NCBI GenBank assembly: GCA_020344395.1
Contig: CP070824.1
Coordinates: 2,227,470-2,264,785 of the forward strand
Source: Candidatus Zixiibacteriota bacterium
GTDB lineage: Bacteria > Zixibacteria > MSB-5A5 > GN15 > FEB-12
Reading direction: 5' to 3'
DNA length: 37,316 bases
The notes beneath the pieces were generated by a model that worked only from the letters and a program-made list of their open reading frames with translations, searched no databases and had not been told where the DNA came from. Below are positions 916 to 30,953 of the stretch, in pieces. The translations under genes and the position numbers were made by a program. The stretch's first letter is position 1; every line of letters begins with the position of its first letter.

Positions 916-1194
916 CCTGAAAGGGTCGGCGACGATGAAGTGGGTTTTGGGTTTCCCGTGCGATCAACTCTCGGAGTCCTGTCATCCTCCGGAAAACCGG
1001 GCTAATTGGAGCTTACGCGTATCACTGCGGTTACCTGATGGTCCAAGGTACCTCCAGTGTAGGCATAATCCCTTGCCGTGTCGAACCTTAAATCAGCTCT
1101 GAACGGCTCAAGTCGGCCGGGTCGCCCATTCGCATGCGGTGGGTTCCTCGCGTCCCATTACGAATATCTATAATCACATCCGTCCCGTCTTAAG

Positions 1195-1280
1195 CGGAGA
1201 GGCAGGGATTCGAACCCTGGATAGGGGCTTCCTATACACGCTTTCCAGGCGTGCGCCTTAAACCACTCGGCCACCTCTCC
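1195..1280 (-). tRNA. tRNA-Ser (anticodon GGA), CCA not encoded
   Basis: GGAGAGG/CCTCTCC acceptor stem; D arm GCCGAGTGGTTTAAGGC; anticodon arm CACGC-CTGGAAA-GCGTG; long variable arm ATAGG-AAGCC-CCTAT; T arm CAGGG-TTCGAAT-CCCTG; discriminator G followed by CTT. Confidence 0.97.
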
Positions 1281-1369: not shown

Positions 1370-2782
1370 TCAGTCACCCTTGAAAGCCGAGATCATGATA
1401 TTAGAGCCTTCAAGACTCACTTTGCAGCAAGTCTGATCCTCGAGAATCTCACGGTAGAGAATGCCAAAATGAGCCACCGAGCCTGCATAAAGGGTATCTT
1501 CCACAATAATGCAGGAATCCCGATATTCCTTCATCTTCTCTTCAACTTCGAGTTTCTGCTTTTCCAGGGCTTCAATGTTTCCCGGCAGCCCTTCCTTAAA
1601 AGCCTCCAGTTTGGCCAGCGCCTGCTCTTTATCTGGAGGGAGGCTGTCACCGGCCTGAAGCTTGTACAGCGCCTGGAGTGCATCTTTCACCCTTTGGCCG
1701 TCAGCCTGGAGACGGGCTATCTCGTTGGATATCTGGCGATGCCGTTTCATCAACTTGTGGTTATAGGCGACAAAGAGGTCGGTCTTGGTCCCGGCCTCCG
1801 AACCCGCCACCGATGTCCTTATCGCCTTACCGGCGCGAGTTACCCCGCCAACGATCTTGCCGCGCCGACCTTTAATATGAATCTTCTCTTTCGCCGTAGC
1901 CTGGCAGTTGATAAGTTCTCCGCCAACATGCAGATCGTTGCCGGCAATGATTTTCTGACCCTCGGCATACTTCAACGTAATGTCACCATCGGCGCGCAAT
2001 TGCCCCTGACCGTTGCCGAAGAATCCACCCTTAATCATGATATTGCCCTTGGTGTAAATATCCGCGTCCTCGACGTTTCCGGACACCTCAAGGTCGCCAT
2101 CAATCCTTAATTCAAACCCCGCTTTGATACACCCGGCGACCCGAACTGAACCTCTGCAATCGAGGTTGCCGACGCTAAAATCCACATCCCCCCGAACCGT
2201 AAGAACATCGTTGACTGATACCTTGCCGTTCTGGAAAAGTATAGCGCCGCTGGTGGCGGCGCGAAGTTCCAGCCCATCATCGGACAGGACGGTCTTCGCC
2301 CCGTACTTGATGGGGATATCCCGACCCGCGGGCCCCGAAATTTCCTTACCGTAAACATTCCTGCCCGGGACACCCTCAGTCGGCGGAATCTTATGAGCGA
2401 GAACTTTACCTTCCTCGATATTCTGTATGAAATTGATGTCGTGGTAATCGATCCGCCCGTCCTCATCTTCCTTGGGAGTGTGTTTGTCCAGGGTGTCAAA
2501 ATGATAGACTATGGTTGACGAGTTCCCTCGCTTGGGCTTAACGCCTTCAGCAGCTCTGAGCGGTGTATTGAAGGCGCGCTCATCAACCGCTTTCTTGATA
2601 CCCTCTTCGTCGATTCCGTATTTGACCCCTGCCGCCTCGAGGGCCTTCATGACGTCCTCGAATGTGGGATCGGATTCCTCCGAAGACGGATTACGCAGGA
2701 GCAGTGAGGCAACCATTGAGTCTTTTGAGATCGTGACCTTAACTAGCTCACGGGTACCGGTCTGTGTGCCCGTACTGGTCAT
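1370..2782 (-). CDS. fapA: Flagellar assembly protein A (DUF342/FapA family)
   Basis: Typical motifs GVKYGIDE, GRIDYHDINFIQNI, IPPTEGVPGRNVYG, GDVDFSVGNL beta-solenoid and a C-terminal coiled coil; flagellar context. Confidence 0.88.
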   Translation of the reverse strand: MTSTGTQTGTRELVKVTISKDSMVASLLLRNPSSEESDPTFEDVMKALEAAGVKYGIDEEGIKKAVDERAFNTPLRAAEGVKPKRGNSSTIVYHFDTLDKHTPKEDEDGRIDYHDINFIQNIEEGKVLAHKIPPTEGVPGRNVYGKEISGPAGRDIPIKYGAKTVLSDDGLELRAATSGAILFQNGKVSVNDVLTVRGDVDFSVGNLDCRGSVRVAGCIKAGFELRIDGDLEVSGNVEDADIYTKGNIMIKGGFFGNGQGQLRADGDITLKYAEGQKIIAGNDLHVGGELINCQATAKEKIHIKGRRGKIVGGVTRAGKAIRTSVAGSEAGTKTDLFVAYNHKLMKRHRQISNEIARLQADGQRVKDALQALYKLQAGDSLPPDKEQALAKLEAFKEGLPGNIEALEKQKLEVEEKMKEYRDSCIIVEDTLYAGSVAHFGILYREILEDQTCCKVSLEGSNIMISAFKGD

Positions 2783-2796
2783 CCGCGCTCCCCTTC

Positions 2797-3201
2797 CTAA
2801 GCTCGCTCCGTGTCCTCTTTCGGTGCGGATAGAAGGCGCCGGTAGGCACGTTCCACTACTAAGGAAATTTCGTGGCTCTTGAATGGCTTGGTAATATACT
2901 CGTCTGCTCCAAGCAGCAGGGCATCCTTGACCGTATATGTGTCACCATAGGCCGTCATCATGATAACGCCCACGCCCGGATAGTCTTTCTTGATGACGCG
3001 CAGAAGGTCAAATCCGCCCATACCGGGCATCTTCATGTCCGTAATCACGAGCTGTGGGCTCTCGTTTTTCAGCACTTCCAGAGCCTCTTCCCCGTCTCCG
3101 GCCAGCAATACGCGATACCCGTCGCGAGAAAGAATCTTGTCCAGCAGATCTCTCATGCCGACTTCATCGTCCACGATAAGTATGGAAAGAAGATTCTCCA
3201 T
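2797..3201 (-). CDS. Single-domain response regulator (receiver)
   Basis: ILIVDDE, VITDMKMPGMGG (phospho-Asp), MMTAY, YITKPF; no output domain. Confidence 0.92.
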   Translation of the reverse strand: MENLLSILIVDDEVGMRDLLDKILSRDGYRVLLAGDGEEALEVLKNESPQLVITDMKMPGMGGFDLLRVIKKDYPGVGVIMMTAYGDTYTVKDALLLGADEYITKPFKSHEISLVVERAYRRLLSAPKEDTERA

Positions 3202-3274
3202 TGCCCTCAGTCGTCCCTCATCTTATCACCTGGAAGTTAATCGATTCAATCAGGGCGTTCACCCGCTATCCCTG

Positions 3275-3691
3275 CTAACCCAGCAGGGTTGCGTTGAGCG
3301 CCCCTATGAATTCATCCAGCTTGATCGGTTTGTACACTACCTTGCAAGCACCGAGCACGCCGGCTTGATTGACCAGTTTCTCGGTGGCATTTCCGGTGAT
3401 GACTACGATGGGCGTACGAGGCGACAACTCCTTGATCCGATCAAGGGCATCCAGCCCCGACATCTCCGGCATCACCAGATCCATTGTCACCAGGTCGTAG
3501 GTCGTCTTGCTGACCAGCCCCACGGCTTCAGTTCCGCTGGAGGCCATGTCAACTTCGAAGGCGTCCGTCAACTCGCAGAAATCTCTAAATACGTCGCGCA
3601 CCCAGGGCTCGTCATCCACAATGAGGATTTTGAACGGCTGGCCTTTTTCACGGGCCTTCCGACTCAGGTTTTCAAGATCATTATCTGTCAT
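3275..3691 (-). CDS. Single-domain response regulator (receiver)
   Basis: ILIVDDE, VTMDLVMPEMSG, VVITG, VVYKP; start moved to ATG 3691 because the TTG at 3760 abuts a sigma28 -10 box. Confidence 0.88.
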   Translation of the reverse strand: MTDNDLENLSRKAREKGQPFKILIVDDEPWVRDVFRDFCELTDAFEVDMASSGTEAVGLVSKTTYDLVTMDLVMPEMSGLDALDRIKELSPRTPIVVITGNATEKLVNQAGVLGACKVVYKPIKLDEFIGALNATLLG

Positions 3692-3763
3692 ATGCTTACT
3701 CACTTGGCGGGCGTTGCAATCCGCTTGTTTTGGCGGTGAGCCAAATCCGGCTCCCCTCAAGGT

Positions 3764-3790
3764 TTATCGGCAATCGGGGCCGCTTCCTCA
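3764..3790 (-). promoter_or_regulatory. Putative sigma28 (FliA) promoter for receiver-receiver-fapA
   Basis: Perfect -10 GCCGATAA (3764-3771) in intergenic DNA; weak -35 TGAG at N15. Confidence 0.6.
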
Positions 3791-3849
3791 ATCCGCTGAA
3801 TACACCAATTCGCATGGCCGACCGGGATTCTCGCACCTGGCGCATAGAA

Positions 3850-4218
3850 TCACGCCATCAGGTCCCTGAGTTGAGAGAGAGAGCCCAGGACCCTTGAGCA
3901 TTGCTCCAGTATACCGTGAAGCTTCACCTCAACATGATCCTTGGCGAGTCTTCCTGAGGGCACTTCGTAGGCCATAACCTCCTTATGCTGGGCCGCATTG
4001 AGGATGGTCGTAACCTCCTGGACCACTTTCACCGTCCCGTTTATCAGTCTGACAAAATCAGGTTCCAGGACGACGAATTTACCGCTGGTATCCTTCTGCT
4101 TAAACCTGGCCAGCAGGATAGCGAGGTTGACAGCCAGTGATTTGACCTCATCATTGAGCCGGTCAACTTCGCAGATGATCTGCGGAACCTGGTCTTTTGT
4201 TTCATTGTTCTCAGACAT
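3850..4218 (-). CDS. Small helical protein resembling an isolated, degenerate MCP signalling-domain hairpin tip
   Basis: EVKSLAVNLAILLAR...GKFVVLEPDFVRLINGTVKVVQEVTTIL aligns by eye with the MCP consensus QTNLLALNAAIEAAR..GRGFAVVAxEVRKLAxxTxxxTxEIxxLI. Confidence 0.6.
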   Translation of the reverse strand: MSENNETKDQVPQIICEVDRLNDEVKSLAVNLAILLARFKQKDTSGKFVVLEPDFVRLINGTVKVVQEVTTILNAAQHKEVMAYEVPSGRLAKDHVEVKLHGILEQCSRVLGSLSQLRDLMA

Positions 4219-4257
4219 TCTATCTCACCGATTCACCGAACCGCTGTGTATCCGCCT

Positions 4258-5118
4258 CTAACCGGGCGATTTAGCTCCTGTCTCCTGAGCTTGCCGACCG
4301 GATGACATCACCGAGCCTATCCCGAGCATACGGCGGTTTACCTCGGTGATGGCGAGAGCCGCGGCCTCAATACGTTTCAGACGAGTGAGGGTTTTCTGAT
4401 CATAACCCTTGAGTTGAATCCGCAGACATTGAGCGCTGCCCACGATCACCTCCAGAAGATTGCAGGCCTCATGAAAGGCCGCTGAGGCCAGTTCATCCGC
4501 TGCAACCACCCGCTCTCCAGGGACAACCATACATCGAATCGCATCGAAATCCTGCTTAGTCTTGTCCAGCTCGAGTTCCAGGGCAGATATTATCTGTTCG
4601 TAGATCAGCCGCTCCATCGAAATACTGAGTTGATCCGCCACTATCGCCAGCAGTCCGAGATGATGATCGGCAAGGCCCTGCGGCCGTCGGCAGCCCAAAT
4701 TCAGTACTCCAATAAGCCGCTCATCCCTGACCAGGGGATAAGAGAGAACGCATGCGAAATCGACTTCCGGATCGAAATTGCTCTTCTTAGTGCGATCGGA
4801 CAGCAGGATTGGCTTGCGGCTGCGTGCCGTCCACCCGGACAGACCATCCCCTAACTTCAGCCTGAAATTCTCGAGTATCTCGATCCGAGAACCGAGCGTT
4901 GCCCGTTCCTCCAAACGTTTGCCCGCAGAATCGACAAGGAACAACGTAGCCGCGTCGAATGGCACCAACTGCTGCACAAGGCCGAGCACATCCCGGTAAA
5001 CGGTTCCGGATGCCCGGTCTCTGCGGCATCGTGCTGAAATCTCGGCCAGCAGACCGATCTTCTTCCAGAAATCCGGCGATTCGATGTTACCTTCCGGCCG
5101 CACTTTGTCAGCGTACAA
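4258..5118 (-). CDS. GAF domain protein with C-terminal HisKA/DHp helix pair and no HATPase domain
   Basis: GAF motifs GDGLSGWTARSRKPILLSD and VLSYPLVRDERLIGVLNL; H-box-like AAFHEACNLLEVIVGSAQ (His216); ORF ends ~20 aa after the DHp; TTG start coupled to the upstream stop. Confidence 0.75.
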   Translation of the reverse strand: MYADKVRPEGNIESPDFWKKIGLLAEISARCRRDRASGTVYRDVLGLVQQLVPFDAATLFLVDSAGKRLEERATLGSRIEILENFRLKLGDGLSGWTARSRKPILLSDRTKKSNFDPEVDFACVLSYPLVRDERLIGVLNLGCRRPQGLADHHLGLLAIVADQLSISMERLIYEQIISALELELDKTKQDFDAIRCMVVPGERVVAADELASAAFHEACNLLEVIVGSAQCLRIQLKGYDQKTLTRLKRIEAAALAITEVNRRMLGIGSVMSSGRQAQETGAKSPG

Positions 5119-5119
5119 G

Positions 5120-5731
5120 TTACCTGCCTCTCATCAGCATTTTCGTTCGCGTGGCCAGCCTCTCGGCCAGACGATTCTCAAGACGATCGAACAGATCCAA
5201 CTTTTCGGACGCCCGCAGGACCAGATCGGGATCATCACGGTTGTTATCAGGATCACCCTGAATCACCCGTCTGGCACAACATATTTCCCGAAACGGCTCG
5301 GCCGCGAGCATTCGTCCTCGTTGCAGATCGAGGAGGCGATATTCCCCCTGTACAACACCCACTGTCTCCCAGCGGTGCAACAGCAGCGGAATGCCTGTCT
5401 TCTTCTGGATTTCCAGCCTTTCCTTGGCCACCTGAACGACCAGCAGATAGCGCATCCCCAGTTCTCTGCCCCAGTCAATCAGACTATCCACATCATAAGC
5501 CGCGTGCGGGAAGGGCGGGGTTTCCTCACCCAGTCTCTCGGACAACACGACCCTCAGATCTCGATTGCGTGTGAGATGCTGAGCGACTTTCTGGGTGATG
5601 GCAGACTCCATCCAAGGCAATGCCGGTTGCTCAACGTGCAACAGCACGGTTCGAGTGTTGGACAACAGATTACCGCCGCCGCAGATAAGGATGGCCAGAA
5701 GCAGCCTGATTATCATGCGCCTGTTTACCAT
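5120..5731 (-). CDS. Putative exported protein (possible CsgG/TolB-N/FlgT-like alpha-beta fold)
   Basis: Basic plus hydrophobic signal-like N-terminus; pattern ...GRELGMRYLLVVQV...YRLLDLQRGRMLAA...RLAERL resembles that fold class; fold assignment tentative. Confidence 0.6.
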   Translation of the reverse strand: MVNRRMIIRLLLAILICGGGNLLSNTRTVLLHVEQPALPWMESAITQKVAQHLTRNRDLRVVLSERLGEETPPFPHAAYDVDSLIDWGRELGMRYLLVVQVAKERLEIQKKTGIPLLLHRWETVGVVQGEYRLLDLQRGRMLAAEPFREICCARRVIQGDPDNNRDDPDLVLRASEKLDLFDRLENRLAERLATRTKMLMRGR

Positions 5732-5740
5732 GGCCCTTAC

Positions 5741-6253
5741 CTACTCCGCCGGCTGGCGATACATGTATTGTTTTAGGACTCTGCGCACCGATCCGTCGAA
5801 ATCCGTATAATTGCCCGCAATCAGATCGATTTCCGCCTTACTCAACATATCCTCCAGCCGCTCCCGGGACAGGAACTCAATGCCGGTCAGGCAACCTTCC
5901 TCTGTCTGTTCCACTCGCTTGGTAAGTCCCAGAACGTCGTCGAGGGGTTCAATATCCTGAAGGATGAAGTGCATCGACACAATATCGCCGCAGCAAATGG
6001 CTTCATTGAGGTCCACCAACACTCCGCCGGCTGAAATATTTAGCACGGTACCGGCGATGACCCGATCATTCCCGTCCGGCCAAAAGCCGCCATGGGTATC
6101 CTTAAGGGTCTGCAGAGACATCGGGGTCGATATCTCGAGCCGAATGAAGCGCCTCTTGTTGCGCCGCTCCACTTTGAACGGACGGCGAACATCCGTGTCG
6201 CCGGTGGCAGTGTCGACCTCACTGATTAACTTGACCTTCGAATCTGGTTTCAT
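5741..6253 (-). CDS. PilZ domain protein
   Basis: RRFIR (RxxxR) and NISAGG motifs, GIEF; ATGA overlap with the upstream stop supports start 6253. Confidence 0.85.
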   Translation of the reverse strand: MKPDSKVKLISEVDTATGDTDVRRPFKVERRNKRRFIRLEISTPMSLQTLKDTHGGFWPDGNDRVIAGTVLNISAGGVLVDLNEAICCGDIVSMHFILQDIEPLDDVLGLTKRVEQTEEGCLTGIEFLSRERLEDMLSKAEIDLIAGNYTDFDGSVRRVLKQYMYRQPAE

Positions 6254-7026
6254 TGCTTGCTCCCATATGCAAATTGACTTTCTTTGTCCGGGTTCCATAA
6301 TTGTAGCTTCCGGTTCAAGCGGCTGCGGCTCTGAAGAGTGTACCGAAAGACCGACTGCGGCAGCAATTGTCTGGCCGCCCTCGGCAGAAGCCTCAGGCTC
6401 TCTTCTCTCACCAGAAACTCAATGCCCACCATGAACTGACCGTCCTCATCCTGAAAACTATGGCATACTCTGCCCAGAACCATCGGCGGCAGGAACGCCT
6501 GTTCCCAGTCGACATTGATCAGCAGGTACACTCCCTCCTGGAGGCAAGTCGGCACCTTCATGAGCAACCCGCCGCTTGACAGATTGACGCTGTCGGTGGC
6601 CACCCACCGCAAACTCGACAGGCTCCGACGGGAATGCGTGGCAACGGGGAAAGCCGCCATACTTACCGAACGCTTCAGGTCAAGACGAAGGAACCGTCGC
6701 TGAGAAAGGGGTGTGGCCTTCTGGTTCAGTATAAAATTGCACGTGCCGCCCAGGCTGCGCTTCAATCTCGCCCGTACCGATACTTTCTGCCCTTTGTAGG
6801 AAAACCGTAGCACGACGGACTGCAGATTTGCAAGGTTACTGAGCGGTCCCTTACGATCTCCGCGCTCGACCGTAATCTGATGCGGTTGCACCGAAATTAC
6901 CCGGCCTGTCAGACTCTTGCCCTGAAATTGCTCCGAGAATATGGCAATCTCGGTCCCGACCAGGCAGGAAAGATCGAATGCCTGTGTTGCCACAAACCTC
7001 CCTGATGAGGAGCCTTCATGTGCCAT
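6250..7026 (-). CDS. YcgR-like flagellar brake protein (N-terminal barrel + PilZ)
   Basis: QRRFLR and NLSSGG motifs, GIEF; N-terminal beta-rich domain; ATG 7026 follows AAGGA and the upstream stop. Confidence 0.8.
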   Translation of the reverse strand: MAHEGSSSGRFVATQAFDLSCLVGTEIAIFSEQFQGKSLTGRVISVQPHQITVERGDRKGPLSNLANLQSVVLRFSYKGQKVSVRARLKRSLGGTCNFILNQKATPLSQRRFLRLDLKRSVSMAAFPVATHSRRSLSSLRWVATDSVNLSSGGLLMKVPTCLQEGVYLLINVDWEQAFLPPMVLGRVCHSFQDEDGQFMVGIEFLVREESLRLLPRAARQLLPQSVFRYTLQSRSRLNRKLQLWNPDKESQFAYGSKQ

Positions 7027-7027
7027 A

Positions 7028-7768
7028 TCAGAACAGTCCTTTCTTTCGCATCTCATTCTGGTCAGAAAGAATGCGAGCGGCTAACTCCGTCCGCTTAGGT
7101 CTGGTGAACTCCTTGACTGCCTGAGGCAGGAGACGAAGAGTCTCTTTCGGGAAGAGCCTGGCCAGTCTTTCCGCCAGGATGAATTCGACTCCAGCCTGCC
7201 TCACCTCGCCCTGATCAACCGTCCTTTGACATATGGCTGCCATTATCCCGGGCAATCCCTGACCTTCAACGAACTCCAGCCTCACCAACAGCAGGGAGTT
7301 CACGTTTATCCTGTCCTGAACTGTTATCAGGGCTCCGCCCCCGCTGATGTTTACACAGCGCGATTCCAACCAGATAAGATCACTCTTCAGCTCCTGCTGC
7401 GGCGCCACCGGCGTGTAAAGAGCTTTCGTGTCCGTACCGGTTCGGACGAACAGGCGCCGCTGAACCCGTTGAAGTCTGGTCGGAGGGCTCAACACCATCT
7501 GCCGGCCATGTTTGAGCCGGCGCCTGATAATCCTCGAATGAAATTGATAAGCAGCATCCTCTCGCGTGAAGGTTACCACCGTCGGTATCTTATCCCTGAG
7601 GCGCGTGTGCCCGCGAACGAATTCAGGCTGGGTGATGACTATGCCGCCATTGACGAAATCTTCGATGCGTGCCTCGTAGATTCCTGCCGCCTTATCCTCA
7701 CCTACGAGCAACGTTATCTTCTCATGCACTCTGAAGAGGTGTTCGGTCTTTTGATCCAGGGCGCGCAT
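7028..7768 (-). CDS. YcgR/DgrA-like flagellar brake protein (YcgR_2 + PilZ)
   Basis: YEARIED...FTREDAAYQFHSRI N-domain; QRVQRRLFVR, NISGGGA, GVEF; C-terminal MRKKGLF. Confidence 0.88.
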   Translation of the reverse strand: MRALDQKTEHLFRVHEKITLLVGEDKAAGIYEARIEDFVNGGIVITQPEFVRGHTRLRDKIPTVVTFTREDAAYQFHSRIIRRRLKHGRQMVLSPPTRLQRVQRRLFVRTGTDTKALYTPVAPQQELKSDLIWLESRCVNISGGGALITVQDRINVNSLLLVRLEFVEGQGLPGIMAAICQRTVDQGEVRQAGVEFILAERLARLFPKETLRLLPQAVKEFTRPKRTELAARILSDQNEMRKKGLF

Positions 7769-7785
7769 TTACCATCCCGCCAATA

Positions 7786-8964
7786 CTATGACTTCGTGGC
7801 GGCAGCCAGGTTAACCCGGCCTTGCTCGACAGCCAGTTCAAGAATCTTGCGTGCCAGCGCCGTCCGTGATTGATCGCTTCTATTCTGGTAGATAAAATCC
7901 TGCCCTGTCTTGATGGTGCTCGCGAAGAATCGCTTGGCCTCATCGTAGTCACCAATCCGCCGCGAAAGCTCGGCGATCATGTACGAGGCCTGGATCTGCT
8001 GCGGACCGGGAGCGATATCGCGTCCGGCCGAGAAGGCCTTCTTGTAGTGAAACGCCGCCTTCTGGAGTGCCTCGTGCTCGTTTGTGACTATCTCCGGCCA
8101 TGCCTTGCGCAGATCGCCCAGAAACTTCCCAAACGATTCGTGGCTGCCGAAACCGGTCCCGCTGTCCCCATCGCCGGAGCCCAGTGTGGCCTGCTTGTAT
8201 TCCTCGATCAGACTACCCAGGCTGGACAACTTGCCTCGCGTTTCTTCGATACAACCCGACAGGCCGTCCAGTGATTCGCGGTACCGATCTTGAAAAGCCA
8301 GCATTTCCGATTTCAGATCAGCCGCGATTTGATCCGTCTCGATATGTGATCTGACCTGTTGCTCGAATGTCTTCAGTTCAGTCTCGACAGAGTCCACCAC
8401 CTGGTTCAGTTGGCCGTATTCGTTGTCCAGCTCATGCATCAATCCGCTTACATGAAGGTGTTGAGGGTTATCACCCTTTTGGAGATCGCGATATACCCAG
8501 CCTATCCGCAGATAGAACCTGCCGAGATCCAGTTCGTTGGCATGCTCGGCCAGGAGTTCATCATAAATGGCCAGATGAAGCTTCAGAACCGCCGATTCGT
8601 TGGGATAGCGGTGTATGTCGATTGCCTCGCCGAACTGCTTGATGATCGACTCGGCGGATGACAATTGCTCCAGGTGTTTGTCCTTCACCTGCTTGAGTCG
8701 ATAAGTGCGGAAGGTGTTGTCACTCTTCCAGTCCTTGTACTTGCTGGTGAGTTCGCGCGTGTAGAAGCAGTTGCTACAGGTAGCGGTGAAGAAGACCAGT
8801 GGGTTAAATGCCTGGTAGCGGGGAGTTCGCCAGGTTATGCCCATGGGACTAAAATCGGAATCCCTTCCATCTTCAGTATATGCCCCAACTCGCACCATCT
8901 CAAACTCGTTGATTGTCCTGCATATCGGACACTCAATCTTCAGCAATAAGAACGGATTATCCAT
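7786..8964 (-). CDS. DUF2225 family protein with internal coiled-coil insertion
   Basis: CPIC...DSDF...NPL...CSNCFY zinc-ribbon N-terminus; LRIGWVYRD; C-terminal YKKAF...YMIAELSRRIGDYDEAKRFF TPR-like helices. Confidence 0.8.
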   Translation of the reverse strand: MDNPFLLLKIECPICRTINEFEMVRVGAYTEDGRDSDFSPMGITWRTPRYQAFNPLVFFTATCSNCFYTRELTSKYKDWKSDNTFRTYRLKQVKDKHLEQLSSAESIIKQFGEAIDIHRYPNESAVLKLHLAIYDELLAEHANELDLGRFYLRIGWVYRDLQKGDNPQHLHVSGLMHELDNEYGQLNQVVDSVETELKTFEQQVRSHIETDQIAADLKSEMLAFQDRYRESLDGLSGCIEETRGKLSSLGSLIEEYKQATLGSGDGDSGTGFGSHESFGKFLGDLRKAWPEIVTNEHEALQKAAFHYKKAFSAGRDIAPGPQQIQASYMIAELSRRIGDYDEAKRFFASTIKTGQDFIYQNRSDQSRTALARKILELAVEQGRVNLAAATKS

Positions 8965-8989
8965 CAGTCAAATCTCCAATTGTATAGCG

Positions 8990-9424
8990 CTAGTTGCGAC
9001 TCAGAAAGGCCAGTTCACCCTCGGTTATCGGTAAAGTACGCCTGATTCTTTCCGCAGGCACACCGGTGGACAGCATTTTGCGAGCCAGACGAACCGTCTC
9101 CGCACGATCCCGGCGGCCCGACGCAGACCCTCCGTCATACTCACTCTCCTGCGGAGTAGCCGGCGATCCAGCATCACCGGAGGAAGTATCGAAGTGCAGG
9201 TATTCGCCCCCTGTAGCCTTGATGGATCGTGGCTGCTTCGCGTCGGATTTTCCCGATGCCACATCCGGTTTGACGGCCAACGACTTATGCTGTTGCGTTT
9301 TCTTCTTTCGACGGAACGCGGTAAAAATGAGCGCCCAGAGGAACCCTGCGGCAACGTATCCCAGCACGTTCAGTCCTGTGTCTACGAATCTTTCGCTGAA
9401 AACATCCATGTTAAAGACTTCCAT
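8990..9424 (-). CDS. Hypothetical single-pass membrane protein with C-terminal HTH-like segment (DUF2802/DUF6115-like)
   Basis: N-terminal TM followed by RRKKK, low-complexity linker, C-terminal LARKMLSTGVPAERIRRTLPITEGELAFL; SD AGGTAGGA. Confidence 0.7.
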   Translation of the reverse strand: MEVFNMDVFSERFVDTGLNVLGYVAAGFLWALIFTAFRRKKKTQQHKSLAVKPDVASGKSDAKQPRSIKATGGEYLHFDTSSGDAGSPATPQESEYDGGSASGRRDRAETVRLARKMLSTGVPAERIRRTLPITEGELAFLSRN

Positions 9425-9450
9425 GTCATCCTACCTCTCTGTCCGGAAAA

Positions 9451-9774
9451 TCATGCCTTCAGGTCGACATGGGTGGTGTCGTCGACATCACCGTCGTCCG
9501 GAGGCAAAGCTCTCTTTTGCCCTGGCGAATCGTCCACATTACCCTCTGCATCTTCCCCTGTCTGTGCGTCCCGGGGAGACTGATGATCTTCTCCGAGCAC
9601 CACTTCATCCTGCATCTGCTCTCTCTTCCGCTTGGTCAGATCATCCTCCATCTTCTCCTTGAGGGCTCGCGACGACTGTCTCTGTTTCTCGCGCTCCGAC
9701 TCCTGCATCGGGTTGACTTTGCCGGGCGGTTGATATGAAATCGCGTCCGTTCCATCCAGCGGCGTATCCACCAT
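9451..9774 (-). CDS. Hypothetical charged/disordered protein ending in HVDLKA
   Basis: SD GGGAG; co-oriented and tightly packed after fliA; charged coiled segment. Confidence 0.65.
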   Translation of the reverse strand: MVDTPLDGTDAISYQPPGKVNPMQESEREKQRQSSRALKEKMEDDLTKRKREQMQDEVVLGEDHQSPRDAQTGEDAEGNVDDSPGQKRALPPDDGDVDDTTHVDLKA

Positions 9775-9804: not shown

Positions 9805-10638
9805 CTATCCCGTCAGGGCAAACTTTTCCCTGACCATATTTCTGAGTTTCATCACTGCTCTGGTGTGAATCTGCGATACCCGAGATTCGGAAATCGACAT
9901 CACCTCACCGATTTCCTTGAGCGTCAGCTCCTCGAAGTAATACAGCGCAATCACCAGCTTTTCCTGTTCCGTCAGACGATCGATGGCCACCACTAGGTAT
10001 GAACGTAACTCACCTCGCTCGATTTCACCGAGGATGCTCCCGGCCACTGTGTCACTGACCGTTTCAATGCGCGGAACCTGACGATTGTCGTCCTCGGGAT
10101 AGACAATTTCGTCCAGGGACAGCATGTTGGTGCTGGAGACATCGTCGATGGCCAGGTGAAGCTCACGGTCTGACATATCAAGTTGCTTTGCCAACTCTCT
10201 TCTCTCCGGCGCGCGACCCAGCTCATTCTCCAGAACGGTCATGGCCCTGTCAATCTCTCGTGACTTGGCCCGGGTCGACCTTGGCACCCAGTCCAGAGCG
10301 CGCAATTCGTCAAGTATGGCACCCCTAATCCTGGGCACGGCGTAGGTCTCGAACTTGACTCCACGATCGGGATCAAAATGCCCGAAGGCCTCGATCAAAC
10401 CGATCACACCGGTATTGATCAGATCGGTCAGTTCTACCGATCTGGGAAAACCCATGGCCATCCGCGTAGCCACGTTCCGTACCAGTGGGAGGTATTTGTT
10501 CAGAAGTGTCTGGCGACTTTCTTCCGTGCCGTAACGCTGGTAACGAATCCAGTCGTGTCTGGATACGTCCCATCTCTTTCTTCGCTTCGTTGCCTGTGGT
10601 TTGTCCGTCGTGATGGTTGATTCTTTCGCTTCAGCCAT
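9805..10638 (-). CDS. fliA: RNA polymerase sigma factor FliA/WhiG (sigma28)
   Basis: FETYAVPRIRGAILDELRALDWVPRS; LYYFEELTLKEIGEVMSISESRVSQIH; start 10638 preferred (10680 is an alternative) given the promoter position. Confidence 0.96.
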   Translation of the reverse strand: MAEAKESTITTDKPQATKRRKRWDVSRHDWIRYQRYGTEESRQTLLNKYLPLVRNVATRMAMGFPRSVELTDLINTGVIGLIEAFGHFDPDRGVKFETYAVPRIRGAILDELRALDWVPRSTRAKSREIDRAMTVLENELGRAPERRELAKQLDMSDRELHLAIDDVSSTNMLSLDEIVYPEDDNRQVPRIETVSDTVAGSILGEIERGELRSYLVVAIDRLTEQEKLVIALYYFEELTLKEIGEVMSISESRVSQIHTRAVMKLRNMVREKFALTG

Positions 10639-10687
10639 TCGTCCACGTCTCCCGAGGGGTTTTTCTAGCGTGCTAACCATATGAATG

Positions 10688-11542
10688 CTATTCCCTTATA
10701 TCGGCGCGGGCCGGAGTATTGTTAATTGTTGAATCTGTCCCGGTGATAGGACCAACTCTCCTCTCAGAGTCGATCCGGGCGGCTAACTCTGTAAGCTCTT
10801 GAGATACAACAGAATCACCCGCCACCGAGTATATTGAGTCTTGTGACGCTATCGACTTCCGTACAACCGGGTCCTCGCTGACAACACCAGCCAACTCGGG
10901 TACCTTCGATAGGAAGCGTCCGCTCACAGCGCAGAATTTCTGATATATATAGTGTGCTTCTTCGCCGTCTTGAGCCCGATTGAGCAGGAGACGACAGTCA
11001 AGCCCGTCACCCGACCGCTGCAGGAACTTGTATAGACCGTAGGCGTCAGATATTGACGTAAACTCCGGGATGAGCACGATCAGGCTCACGTCAGCTCCGT
11101 ATGTCATCGCTGTAAGGGCTGTCGAGACACCGGAGGCCTGATCCACGATTATCGTATCATACAACCGACTGCCCTCGCGCAACGTCTGCATGAACCTGCC
11201 GGCAACATCAATCTCATGCAAACCCAGGTCCGGATCACAGCCAACAGCCGGTAGAATGTCCAGCTTATCGGAAACCGAAGTAACCGCCTCCTCGAGCGTG
11301 AGTTTCCCCCGGGCCACCTCGCCGATACCAAAATCGCAGGTCTGATTGCACAGAATGTGTATGTTTCCACAGTAGAAGTCGGCATCGACCAGCAGCACGC
11401 GCTTCCCCAGCGCGCTCAGACGCTCGGACAGGTTGAATGCCAGCACGGATTTGCCTACCCCTCCTTTGCCGGACAACAACGTGATAATCCGTGCTTCGTG
11501 GCCAGGTCGCGTTCTGGAGTCATGAAGCTTGAGTCTATTCAT
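10688..11542 (-). CDS. flhG: MinD-like flagellar number regulator FlhG/FleN
   Basis: Deviant Walker A SGKGGVGKS, VDAD, PEFTSISDAY; located between flhF and fliA. Confidence 0.88.
   Translation of the reverse strand: MNRLKLHDSRTRPGHEARIITLLSGKGGVGKSVLAFNLSERLSALGKRVLLVDADFYCGNIHILCNQTCDFGIGEVARGKLTLEEAVTSVSDKLDILPAVGCDPDLGLHEIDVAGRFMQTLREGSRLYDTIIVDQASGVSTALTAMTYGADVSLIVLIPEFTSISDAYGLYKFLQRSGDGLDCRLLLNRAQDGEEAHYIYQKFCAVSGRFLSKVPELAGVVSEDPVVRKSIASQDSIYSVAGDSVVSQELTELAARIDSERRVGPITGTDSTINNTPARADIRE
10698..10724 (-). promoter_or_regulatory. Putative sigma28 promoter inside the flhG 3' end, upstream of fliA
   Basis: TAAC-N15-GCCGATAT versus consensus TAAA-N15-GCCGATAA. Confidence 0.7.
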
Positions 11543-28277: not shown

Positions 28278-30953
28278 CTACGGACACGGCGCGAGCGGAA
28301 CATACGATATGAAAAGGTAGTCGATCAACATCGTCAGATCGCCAATATCCTGCCCGGCCTCACCATTCAAGTTTGCTTCATCAGGACAGCAGAAACAGGG
28401 ACTCTCCGGATCGATGAACAGGTAGCTGATGAAACACGTAAGGTCCCCTATATCAACACTTTCTTCGGCATCACAGTTGACATTTCCGGTCACACCGACA
28501 CAACAACTCTCGCATTCATCACCGATTCCGTCATCATCACTGTCAGCCTGGTCGGGGTTATACACATCCGGGCAGTTATCACAGACGTTACCGACGCTAT
28601 CGAGGTCGTCATCCGCCTGCTCGGGGTTTAAAGTATCGCTACAGTTGTCGAATAGCCCCATCGGACAGGATGTATTTTCCTGGTCGGAATCTCCCCAACC
28701 GTCGCCGTCAGAATCAGTGCATGGATCACAGACATCGCCGACCCCGTCACCATCCGCATCCGCCTGATCCGGATTGAAGATACCATCGCAATTATCGCGC
28801 AGGCCGCCTGTCGGGCAGAACCAGTTGCTGAATGCCGTATCTCCCCACCCGTCACCGTCCGTGTCGGTGCACGGATCGCAGATATCCCCAATTCCGTCAG
28901 CATCCGTATCAGTCGTATCATCGCTGGCCACTCCGGGGCAGTTGTCTTCCGGACATGTGTTTGCCGGATAACCCGGATCACCGTAGCCGTCGCTATCGCT
29001 ATCAGTACAAACGTCACAACTGTCGCCGATACCATCCTCGTCTTCATCTGTCTGGCTCGGATTCACGACGCCGTAGCAGTTGTCGCACGAATCACCGACA
29101 CCATCCGAATCTGCATCGGGTTGGCCCGGATCGAACACCAGGTCGCACACATCGATATCACCGCAGATACCGTCATCGTCGATATCATTATCCTGATCAT
29201 ATGGACACTCGTCGCAGATATCGCCGTGACCATCGCCGTCGGCATCAGTTTGATCAGGATTCGGCACCATGGGGCAATTGTCAAGCAGATCACAGATCAG
29301 ATCGCTGTCGGCATCGGTGCAATCCCAGCAGTTAACACCTCTCGCTCCAATGAGTGTGCCGCACTGATTGAATATAGAGCCCGGAGCACACGGCGAGCCG
29401 GCATCGATGGTGAGATCATGTACCGCTGTATCGCAGAAGAACGGAGTGAGAGACATATTGCCGTCCGTCCAGAGTTGATCGGCGTAACTGCCAATCCAGT
29501 CTCCCCCCGCGTTTCCGTAGATATCACAGCACTCAAGGACAACAACAGTGTGCGCACCTCTCGTGCTTATTGTCGCAATAGCGCCGCCGGATTGACCGTA
29601 GGAGAGAATGCAACCTTTGAGTTCCGCATGCACGCCCTGTACACAGAGAGCACTGCCGCCATAATCAGCTGAGTTATCATAAAAAGTGCAGTTGACCAAC
29701 TGCATATAACCCCAAGAGACAGCACAGACAGCACCGCCGTACTTACTCACGTTACGCACGAAGAGACAACGGGATATTCTGGGGCCGGAGTCAGCACCAG
29801 TCAAAAGCACATCCGCAGGGCCTGAATCATAGCCGGGGAATGAAGGTCGGCCTATGTTGATCGCTCCACCCGGATACTCCGCCCCGTTGTCGACAAACAC
29901 ACAATTCTCGATGGTTGGCGAAGCACTATCAGTTAATATAGCCCCTCCCTCCCAATGGTAGCCATTTTTGATTGTGAAGCCGCTCACGAGCGACGTTGAG
30001 TCCTCGCCTGATACAAACCGAAACGCGCGGTGAAGATCGGTGGAATCTGCCTCACAGTCGATGATTGTCTGCTCGGGACCATTTTCCGACAGGAGAACCA
30101 GGTCCTTTCCGCCGAAATCGAGGTCACGGTTTCCTGGACCCGCATAAGTGCCTGGTCCGATAAGTACGGTGTCGCCGTGACCGAGTGCCGCTGAGTCGAT
30201 TCCCTCCTGTATGGTCTGAAAGTCGCCCGGCACATGTATGGTAACGGGTGGAATTGCGGTACAGCATATGGTCGCCTCAACCAGAAGAGCATCGTCCTCT
30301 CCATACAGGTCGAATAGGGTGCTCCATTCGCTGTCATGAAACGCGCTGGAACGATACTCCCCGGCATGCGGTCCCGTTGCTGAATCAGATATGCACACGA
30401 GCCGGTCGCCGGGCCCTCCAATCATAGTCCAGCCTATATGGAAGTCCTCACCGTCAACGAACGCACGCCCAAAAGCCGAGAAGTCTGCCTCAACCCAATC
30501 AGCAGACGACGGCAACACCTCGTACGGTATATCAACTGAGTCCAGAACCTGACCCGGCAGACCAGTTCCATCATCGGCCCAGACGTATACTCGCATGTCA
30601 GGCGTACCGAGCTTGGAATAGCCGAGCACGAGTATTCGAACAACTTCAAGGCTGCAGACATACCCTGGTTCAGCCGTGAATCGAGTGGCGAAATGGCTGT
30701 TAAGGCTGGATGAGGTTATCTGCCAACCCCAAAACGCAGTCGCAGAATCATCATAGTAGTACTCTATCCAGCAAGTGTCGGCGAAGCTTGCCGGGGAAAC
30801 GCTACCTGTAACGGATGGAAGCGGGGCGTTAACACTTCGGGCGAGGTCCCGGTCAGGCAGTTCGGTAGCGTCTGCTTGCGCGGTCAGACAACATACCACC
30901 GCGATCGTCACGCCTGCGATCACACGGATCAAGCACCTGAGACTCAGGTTCAT
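28278..30953 (-). CDS. Large secreted protein: N-terminal beta domain, right-handed beta-helix, thrombospondin type 3 repeats, C-terminal dockerin-like domain
   Basis: Signal peptide ending near AQADA; VPGDFQTIQEGID..GDTVLIGPGTY; GGAI / FxxN repeats; DNCP..NPDQxDxDxDGxGDxCD repeats; duplicated DIGDLT..I.YLF. Confidence 0.87.
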   Translation of the reverse strand: MNLSLRCLIRVIAGVTIAVVCCLTAQADATELPDRDLARSVNAPLPSVTGSVSPASFADTCWIEYYYDDSATAFWGWQITSSSLNSHFATRFTAEPGYVCSLEVVRILVLGYSKLGTPDMRVYVWADDGTGLPGQVLDSVDIPYEVLPSSADWVEADFSAFGRAFVDGEDFHIGWTMIGGPGDRLVCISDSATGPHAGEYRSSAFHDSEWSTLFDLYGEDDALLVEATICCTAIPPVTIHVPGDFQTIQEGIDSAALGHGDTVLIGPGTYAGPGNRDLDFGGKDLVLLSENGPEQTIIDCEADSTDLHRAFRFVSGEDSTSLVSGFTIKNGYHWEGGAILTDSASPTIENCVFVDNGAEYPGGAINIGRPSFPGYDSGPADVLLTGADSGPRISRCLFVRNVSKYGGAVCAVSWGYMQLVNCTFYDNSADYGGSALCVQGVHAELKGCILSYGQSGGAIATISTRGAHTVVVLECCDIYGNAGGDWIGSYADQLWTDGNMSLTPFFCDTAVHDLTIDAGSPCAPGSIFNQCGTLIGARGVNCWDCTDADSDLICDLLDNCPMVPNPDQTDADGDGHGDICDECPYDQDNDIDDDGICGDIDVCDLVFDPGQPDADSDGVGDSCDNCYGVVNPSQTDEDEDGIGDSCDVCTDSDSDGYGDPGYPANTCPEDNCPGVASDDTTDTDADGIGDICDPCTDTDGDGWGDTAFSNWFCPTGGLRDNCDGIFNPDQADADGDGVGDVCDPCTDSDGDGWGDSDQENTSCPMGLFDNCSDTLNPEQADDDLDSVGNVCDNCPDVYNPDQADSDDDGIGDECESCCVGVTGNVNCDAEESVDIGDLTCFISYLFIDPESPCFCCPDEANLNGEAGQDIGDLTMLIDYLFISYVPLAPCP
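28510..29320 (-). repeat. Thrombospondin type 3 (Ca-binding) coding repeats
   Basis: Multiple DxDxDGxGDxCD / DNCPxxxNPxQ units; boundaries approximate. Confidence 0.85.

Follow-up and report, generated by a model that had tools for sequence, protein, structure and literature searches.

A phylum-conserved gene set behind fliA in Candidatus Zixiibacteriota, read as a candidate flagellar control and accessory module beside canonical chemotaxis

The stretch of DNA analysed here, referred to as the window, is one whole contig of 37,316 bases from the draft genome of an uncultured Candidatus Zixiibacteriota bacterium from sediment (440 pieces, 84.8% complete). It carries a flagellar gene cluster in which fliK, flgD, flgE, fliL, fliM, fliN, fliO, fliP, fliR, flhB, flhA, flhF, flhG and fliA follow one another in this order; an open reading frame (ORF) of 89 amino acids (aa) between fliP and fliR is taken, from its position, to be fliQ. 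Behind fliA, the gene for sigma-28, comes a run of thirteen co-oriented and tightly packed genes, all on the minus strand according to the ORF list and Pfam, with intergenic gaps of -49 to 89 nucleotides (nt) as calculated from the ORF coordinates. This run, hereafter the module, is the subject of the present analysis. From the flhG end onwards, the features are as follows.

10698 to 10724, minus strand: sigma-28-type site 1, TTAAC-N15-GCCGATAT, in the 3' end of flhG and 25 nt before the fliA ATG
9805 to 10680, minus strand: fliA (sigma-28), with Pfam Sigma70 r2, r3 and r4; upstream anchor of the module
9451 to 9774, minus strand: 107-aa acidic, low-complexity protein, poorly conserved, without Pfam or NCBIfam match
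8990 to 9424, minus strand: membrane-anchored protein of 144 aa whose C-terminal helical motif is conserved and weakly resembles DUF2802
7786 to 8964, minus strand: DUF2225 protein, PF09986 81.9 bits (cut-off 21)
7028 to 7768, minus strand: YcgR-type PilZ protein of 246 aa, with PilZNR (PF12945) and PilZ (PF07238) both above cut-off
6250 to 7056, minus strand: second PilZ protein, 268 aa by the longest ORF, PF07238 29.6 bits
5741 to 6298, minus strand: third, short PilZ protein, PF07238 25.8 bits
5120 to 5731, minus strand: 203-aa exported or periplasmic protein with an N-terminal hydrophobic segment and a predicted TolB-N/LptE/FlgT/CsgG-like fold
4258 to 5118, minus strand: GAF and HisKA protein (GAF-DHp), GAF by Pfam, with a C-terminal H-box and without ATPase domain
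3850 to 4218, minus strand: tip-like soluble protein of 122 aa, homologous to the tip of the chemoreceptor signalling hairpin
3764 to 3790, minus strand: sigma-28-like site 2, GCCGATAA, with a -10 element matching at 8/8 positions and a poor -35 element, upstream of the RR1 gene
3275 to 3691, minus strand: single-domain receiver RR1; the ATG at 3691 gives a protein of 138 aa, and the longest ORF begins at 3760
2797 to 3201, minus strand: single-domain receiver RR2, PF00072 108.7 bits, with an aromatic residue at the position equivalent to CheY Y106
1370 to 2782, minus strand: FapA (DUF342), last gene of the run, PF03961 216.3 bits (cut-off 31) and PF20250 160.5 bits (cut-off 27)
1194 to 1280, minus strand: tRNA-Ser, anticodon GGA, 89 nt past fapA, at the end of the gene run

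The original prediction, made from the letters of the window, had listed these kinds of genes after fliA, had seen no cheA, cheW, cheB or cheR in the window, and had pointed out that FliM keeps the LSQDEIDALL peptide to which CheY binds. Every gene that it named is present, all of them on the minus strand. No che gene was found in the window by domain scans of the ORFs of 80 aa or more on the strand that bears the genes, and the only two CheW-domain matches of the genome lie on other contigs. FliM does begin with LSQDEIDALL. The observation as such is confirmed.

Related loci, found through DUF2225, belong nearly all to Candidatus Zixiibacteriota or its synonyms. Eighteen order-level loci were compared, taken from relatives with a full-length GAF-DHp match in three families of the order and picked for long contigs. 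The order flhA-flhF-flhG-fliA-H144-DUF2225-PilZ (two or three copies)-exported-GAF/DHp-(histidine kinase and receiver)-tip-RR1-RR2, where H144 stands for the 144-aa protein, is identical in all 18, and fapA lies behind RR2 in 11 of them, a contig end cutting two of the other seven. A second set of 12 distant loci, from six further families, was picked through the tip-like match, so that the tip-like gene is present in every one of them by construction. The core from fliA to the tip-like gene is kept in 12/12, and comprises fliA, DUF2225 (10/12), one to three PilZ genes, GAF-DHp (10/12), a pseudo-kinase with a receiver, the tip-like gene, RR2 and fapA. The original prediction had named loss of the gene order among relatives as grounds for its refutation; the order was found to be conserved. 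Since the arrangement is kept across the phylum, the observation lies far beyond chance. No published description of the Zixibacteria cluster was found in titles and abstract openings, and the supplementary tables of comparative flagellar preprints may list some of the families.

Part of the module encodes proteins of the two-component type. The GAF-DHp protein has an H-box reading FHEACNLL in the window and NHEINNPL in the family consensus, and its phospho-acceptor histidine is kept in 14 of 19 aligned proteins. Pfam detects no HATPase_c in the window protein, which stops about 70 residues past the H-box, and the precomputed annotation of the listed homologues includes PF00512 (HisKA) and never HATPase_c. 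In 12 of the 18 order-level loci an extra GAF-HisKA protein of about 615 aa is encoded between GAF-DHp and the tip-like gene, accompanied in 11 of those 12 by a third receiver; both are missing from the window and from six loci. One example lies at L038:7628-9475 (minus strand), and in most loci a 123-aa receiver then follows. The ATPase-like domain of the extra protein aligns to that of a real kinase and lacks the G1 and G2 glycine motifs, and because of this loss it is probably a pseudo-kinase. Elsewhere in the genome under study only paralogue-level matches to it were found, at no more than 30% identity over 199 aa in the 84.8% complete assembly. The GAF-DHp histidine is kept in all seven loci without the pseudo-kinase and lost in 5/12 loci with it; in this small sample of related genomes the pattern fits a module that would need at least one phosphorylatable DHp.

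The two receivers carry all of the acceptor residues DD, D, T and K, and an output domain is absent from both. RR1 (PF00072 97.2 bits, 48-69% identity in relatives) likely starts at the ATG at 3691, which gives the same 138 aa as in relatives. RR2 is 45-70% identical to its counterparts in the order and 56-62% identical to those of distant families, and its gene is found directly upstream of fapA wherever fapA is present. None of the module's proteins is able to bind ATP, and the source of phosphoryl groups must therefore lie elsewhere.

A second group of signalling genes encodes the three PilZ proteins, which score 25.8, 29.6 and 32.3 bits for PF07238 (cut-off 22.5). All three carry the RxxxR and [DN]xSxxG motifs for binding of cyclic di-GMP (c-di-GMP). 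The YcgR-type architecture is confined to the 246-aa protein, in which PilZNR covers residues 16-96 (PF12945 30.1 bits, cut-off 23) and PilZ residues 103-197. Both motifs are kept in 17/17 orthologues of the YcgR-type protein and in 18/18 of the short third one; for the second PilZ protein they stand at the expected position in 13/16 orthologues, two of the others having none and one having them off position only. The genome has three GGDEF and four HD_5 (HD-GYP-type) genes, and no EAL gene was found in the 84.8% complete assembly. The module holds three of the four PilZ proteins found in the genome, the 268-aa one being seen by the protein scan only and not by the genome scan. A table and the reference list of a comparative preprint (PMC13277936) name YcgR, MotI (DgrA), FlgZ and MotL, model c-di-GMP brakes or clutches of the flagellum, and the preprint lists FapA and PilZ proteins among flagellar components.

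The 122-aa tip-like protein gives no PF00015 match up to an E value of 10 (gathering score 34.6 bits), and six of 17 orthologues give matches below the cut-off, the best at E 6e-6. A profile built from the 17 orthologues matches residues 122-238 of 2CH7/3JA6 in the PDB (E 8e-7), as well as Tsr, Aer and PcaY, and it also matches full-length frames in relatives, of the size of a methyl-accepting chemotaxis protein (MCP), at about E 1e-12. The consensus reads LALNLAIYLAK where the 2CH7 chain (TM1143) has LALNAAIEAARAGE. An AlphaFold2 model (predicted local distance difference test, pLDDT, 71) suggests a hairpin and a third helix (residues 6-42, 52-76 and 89-121). The long antiparallel coiled coil with methylation helices, typical of an MCP, is absent. 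Among its 138 database homologues, the source names given all read 'hypothetical', with a single automatic 'Zn finger' label as the exception, and most of the taxa given are Zixibacteria. Structure neighbours in the ESM Atlas were all below the naming bar. A complex prediction of two tip-like chains with the CheW of the genome (residues 30-177) scored 0.20 against a mark of 0.32 and was run without controls; as to binding, it is evidence in neither direction. In family f3 a cheW gene is found immediately downstream of the tip-like gene. The gene lies at L050:5866-6921 (minus strand), also occurs in L047 and L048, and has matches in genomes G026, G029, G032, G038 and G040, in three of which it is the only CheW-domain match. 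The CheW protein of L050 has an N-terminal tail of about 190 residues, rich in Lys, Ala and Pro and then acidic.

FapA closes the run. According to a preprint on these proteins, they are regulators associated with the pole or the flagellum in Vibrio, Borrelia and Helicobacter, with EIIA-Glc as partner in Vibrio and PilM in H. pylori (bioRxiv 10.64898/2026.10.23.761471).

The DUF2225 protein, 45-66% identical in relatives, combines a four-Cys zinc ribbon (C12, C15, C63 and C66 invariant) with a TPR-like C-terminus; in a study of Leptospira biflexa, a DUF2225 mutant shows a motility defect and the gene is needed for normal motility (PMC12236494). The 144-aa protein was found by a hidden Markov model in 18/18 order-level loci, and in its family alignment a hydrophobic helix at the N-terminus is joined by a variable linker to a conserved C-terminal part. 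Weak matches to PF10975 (DUF2802) occur in 6/17 of its orthologues (best E 0.0047), and none in the window protein. The 203-aa protein has an AlphaFold2 model of pLDDT 94 whose Foldseek and VIA matches are the TolB N-domain (Z 13.3), CT253, FlgT (Z 12.5), LptE, PelC and CsgG; it is predicted with high confidence to have the fold of these periplasmic lipoproteins (TolB-N/LptE/FlgT/CsgG-like). Its family is small, with 140 representatives among 1.84 billion proteins. For the 107-aa protein, which looks disordered, an orthologue was detected in 5/18 order-level loci. It was considered as a candidate for FlgM and rejected, FlgM being matched on another contig and the 107-aa protein having no Pfam match. 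Neither Pfam nor NCBIfam gives a match for the 107-aa, 144-aa, 122-aa and 203-aa proteins of the window themselves. Taken as a whole, the module appears to combine known kinds of domain in an undescribed arrangement, together with two unnamed families, the receptor-tip fragment and the periplasmic TolB-N/FlgT-fold protein, whose named homologues are mostly from this phylum.

Sigma-28 promoters follow a consensus of the form TAAA-N15-GCCGATAA-like, and two candidate sites of this type had been proposed, one before fliA and one before RR1. Site 1 has a -10 element matching at 7/8 positions and TTAAC as its -35 element. GCCGAT[AT] stands at the same distance in 17 of the 18 order-level loci, mostly with ATAAAT 14-15 nt upstream, and synonymous positions are invariant in most of the order-level loci that have the element. 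The window has 8 copies of the heptamer GCCGATA where 4.3 are expected, so that one site alone is not above chance, and it is conservation that separates the two sites. The exact form TAAA-N14-16-GCCGATAA gave no match in the window. Genome-wide, TAAA-N14-16-GCCGATA has 12 matches, which neither validate nor refute the consensus; of the six ORFs scanned below them, three are without Pfam match and the others encode an HDOD protein, PilM and a single receiver, and there is no classical late flagellar gene among the six. Two of the 12, at G000:C1:1113458 and G000:C1:2799318 (L148 and L149), lie 38-40 nt before genes for an HDOD/HD protein with a weak HisKA match and for a single-domain receiver, and these are possible further sigma-28 targets with signalling roles. 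A similar sigma-28-type element is found about 200 nt upstream of one flagellin gene. FliA itself is 64-81% identical in relatives. It is 291 aa long and its region 2 begins only at residue 59, giving a possible N-terminal extension of about 40 residues, which is kept in most relatives (coverage 1.00 in 12/18 loci).

The relation of the module to chemotaxis was followed in 41 relatives, of which 37 gave a match to the CheW domain. The four without a match are G004, G009, G015 and G019, a group with completeness values of 85, 94, 98 and 100%, and in G029, G035 and G038 the only CheW is encoded by the module. In these seven relatives MCPsignal was found in 0/7, and the CheA dimerisation domain gave one weak match. 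The tip-like gene is present in all seven and FlhA in six; the full gene order was read in four of them, and FliM LSQ[DE]EIDALL is kept in 4/4 checked. The most economical interpretation is that in such relatives FliM is still the docking site of some CheY-like receiver, and the receivers of the flagellar cluster would be the obvious candidates. In relatives the module appears to be independent of Che.

We read the stretch as the distal, phylum-conserved part of the main flagellar cluster, forming a control and accessory module that stands beside canonical chemotaxis and does not depend on it; our confidence in this reading is about even. The genes after fliA would be read together with fliA, and in part this would start at the sigma-28-type promoter in the 3' end of flhG. 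As readers of c-di-GMP, the PilZ proteins, among them the YcgR-type one, would act on the motor. Phosphorylation of the two receivers would be due to a kinase that the module does not encode, possibly CheA or another histidine kinase in this genome, and GAF-DHp would serve the receivers as a ligand-gated phosphatase or as a hub of His-phosphotransfer, in the manner of Spo0B, ChpT and RetS. One of the receivers, RR2 being the better candidate, would have FliM, the neighbouring FapA or both of them as its target. The tip-like protein may be a scaffold or decoy for partners of the CheW or DHp type, and the DUF2225 protein, the DUF2802-like membrane protein and the periplasmic TolB-N/FlgT-fold protein would be accessories of structure or assembly rather than parts of the signalling.

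Several findings weigh against this reading, and some parts of the original prediction are weakened or unsupported. That prediction had called for a genome-wide search for che genes, and the search found a complete-looking cluster elsewhere. The canonical set comprises CheA, CheB, CheR, CheZ, two CheY-like receivers, CheW and one MCP, and the cluster, on another contig, encodes a HEAT-repeat protein, a receiver, CheR, two CheY-like receivers, CheZ, CheA and CheB. With this cluster present, the module adds to Che in this genome and does not replace it. Having CheY-like receivers and CheZ of its own, the cluster could explain the FliM docking peptide fully in this genome. RR1 and RR2 are 24-33% identical to the CheYs of the che cluster and lack the DWNMP motif. 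As to the relatives, absences in draft genomes mean 'not found' and are not proven. The che cluster (L003, G000:C1:2137999-2150326) opens with a HEAT-repeat protein of 635 aa and a receiver; its neighbours are a GAF-SpoIIE (PP2C) phosphatase upstream and a PAS histidine kinase downstream.

The same weighing applies to promoters and transcription. The site 1 element was found in 0/12 distant loci. It overlaps the last, conserved codons of FlhG and the Shine-Dalgarno region, leaving a leader of only about 10 nt, and given this overlap its constraint may be partly coding. Because it overlaps conserved FlhG residues and the ribosome-binding site, we rate it as no more than a probable sigma-28 promoter. 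Site 2 is not conserved, with clear -10 matches in 2 to 4 of 19 loci; of the two proposed promoters, whose sequences are present at both positions, only that at 10698-10724 is conserved within the order. That the genes after fliA form one operon we infer from spacing and co-orientation only. Terminator-like sites in the window are at chance level (8 against 8.2 expected). A search of sequencing runs found no RNA run containing the stretch, and two sediment DNA runs of one study contain about half of the words sampled from it.

As regards mechanism, the interactions among the module proteins, and with them the way in which the module would work, are predictions from sequence. With no ATP-binding kinase, the module is not a self-contained phosphorelay; the stripped-down phosphorelay of the original prediction survives in the intact acceptor residues of the receivers, and not as a relay sufficient to itself. 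Its proposal that c-di-GMP sensing is joined to phosphotransfer is borne out for the parts, the PilZ motifs and the receiver acceptor residues, and weakened for the coupling, for which gene adjacency is the only basis. Its reading of the PilZ proteins as putative c-di-GMP readers is supported, both binding motifs being intact in all three and GGDEF and HD-GYP-type genes being present in the genome, and so is its comparison of the 122-aa protein with an MCP tip, at the level of profile homology. The interpretation is thus partly supported: what remains overall is a conserved flagellar module of putative c-di-GMP readers and kinase-less two-component proteins; replacement of Che in this genome does not remain.

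A last group of findings against the reading comes from family f11 (G105, G078, G204 and G181), where FlhA, FliP and flagellin were each found in 0/4 genomes, one of which is a single contig of 94% completeness. Both fetched f11 loci (L137 from G105 and L143 from G181) retain fliA followed by a small gene of kinase type, genes for a PilZ-like protein and a receiver, and the tip-like gene. Only L137 gave a match for the HisKA pseudo-kinase, and this locus, the annotated one, has FlgN, FliW and an HDOD gene nearby. A fliA set kept without the flagellar core suggests that at least part of the signalling set tracks sigma-28 and not a working motor. The f11 clusters may be either a sigma-28 regulon outliving the flagellum or a decaying cluster.

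The f11 genomes lead to an alternative in which the signalling genes, including the pseudo-kinase and receiver of relatives, regulate the activity of sigma-28, late genes or a switch of lifestyle, and not the motor. It would also account for the fact that the module always begins at fliA. On the other hand, FlgM is the usual anti-sigma-28 factor and is present in this genome, and the module has no recognisable DNA-binding or sigma-binding domain. FapA and YcgR-type proteins are known to act at the flagellar pole or motor, and the f11 clusters may be decaying remnants. We consider this alternative improbable.

A different alternative, close to the original prediction, is that of a self-contained circuit under control of sigma-28, which supplies a CheY-like switch signal, merges it with c-di-GMP sensing and replaces the chemotaxis proteins at the motor. 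The flagellated relatives without MCP, convincing CheA and, mostly, CheW would suit such a circuit, with the tip-like gene in 7/7 and the FliM peptide in 4/4 checked, as would the intact acceptor residues of the receivers, the aromatic switch residue of RR2 and the conserved sigma-28-type site before fliA. It appears unlikely nonetheless: CheA, CheW, CheB, CheR, CheZ, CheY-like receivers and an MCP are present in this genome, the second sigma-28 site is not conserved, and the module has no ATP-binding kinase. Nor is one supplied by the extra HisKA protein of relatives, whose ATPase-like domain is without the G1 and G2 glycine motifs, and this places the source of phosphoryl groups outside.

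It is also doubtful that there is no common circuit at all, and that mixed late flagellar accessory genes are held together behind fliA by operon inertia, as the non-signalling look of the periplasmic TolB-N/FlgT-fold, DUF2802-like membrane and zinc-ribbon/TPR proteins and the variation among families in PilZ number (one to three), GAF-DHp, extra HisKA protein with receiver, cheW and fapA might suggest: families with a protein identity of no more than 25-60% still share order and content, the GAF-DHp histidine and the neighbouring HisKA protein co-vary, and cheW is inserted exactly beside the receptor-tip homologue, which together argue for functional links at least among the signalling genes.

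The reading as a module beside Che can be extended, in a speculative form that we hold for rather unlikely, to a flagellar pathway without CheA and chemoreceptors. In such a pathway the tip fragment (with CheW in one family) and the GAF-HisKA proteins without ATP binding would set the phosphorylation state of CheY-like receivers docking on FliM and on FapA, and the three PilZ proteins would add c-di-GMP. It would be the sole input to the switch where no CheA and MCP were found, and would run parallel to chemotaxis in the genome studied here. Flagellar control is known nearly entirely from a few cultured phyla, and here an uncultured phylum keeps a dozen genes behind fliA as a fixed set. If receivers of the module dock on FliM, the switch would be driven without an array of CheA and receptors, and the module would show what a receptor tip can do when freed from the receptor. 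The proteins are small and soluble, so their binding and phosphotransfer can be approached in vitro without culture of the organism.

The remainder of the window carries housekeeping genes. Two likely surface proteins sit on either side of the flagellar cluster. One, at 257-862 (201 aa), has a weak fibronectin type III match of 23.9 bits, just below the 25-bit cut-off; the other, at 28278-30953 (891 aa), has beta-helix and thrombospondin type 3 repeats.

Among known systems, the layout may be compared with the polar flagellar cluster of Vibrio, Pseudomonas and Shewanella, in which flhA-flhF-flhG-fliA is followed by cheY, cheZ, cheA, cheB and further on cheW and a DUF2802 gene. The flhA-flhF-flhG-fliA backbone with signalling genes behind it is common to both, and a membrane protein with a weak resemblance to DUF2802 is encoded nearby. 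In contrast, Zixibacteria have DUF2225, PilZ proteins, a kinase-less DHp, a tip fragment and two receivers in the place of cheYZAB and cheW, and the che genes of this genome are located on another contig.

Individual proteins have known counterparts as well. FapA has the two Pfam domains of its namesakes in Vibrio vulnificus, Borrelia burgdorferi and Helicobacter pylori and is likewise encoded among flagellar genes, but here a conserved single-domain receiver gene precedes fapA with a gap of 14 nt, and the partners EIIA-Glc and PilM are not encoded beside it. The PilZ proteins resemble the brakes YcgR, MotI (DgrA), FlgZ and MotL in the PilZNR and PilZ domains of the 246-aa protein, in the two motifs present in all three, and in their location in a flagellar cluster; they differ in being three tandem paralogues directly behind fliA, with MotA, FliG and FliM as no more than candidate targets.

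Spo0B, ChpT and pseudo-kinases of the RetS type are built on a DHp incapable of autophosphorylation, and their place is between receivers or upon other kinases. GAF-DHp shares with them a HisKA H-box without ATPase, and RetS is among the PDB sequence matches of the extra HisKA protein of relatives, itself without the G1 and G2 glycines. Unlike Spo0B and ChpT, GAF-DHp has an N-terminal GAF sensor, and it shows no membership of their families at the sequence level, its activity being putative. The tip-like protein, finally, may be compared with the soluble 213-aa receptor of Thermotoga maritima (3G67/3G6B), made of the signalling domain alone, which we take to be Tm14. Both are cytoplasmic and without a sensing domain, and the tip profile matches this receptor at E 0.027-0.031. 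With 122 aa the tip-like protein has only about half its length, which leaves no room for methylation helices, and it differs from soluble chemoreceptors in that its gene is kept in genomes without any CheW domain.

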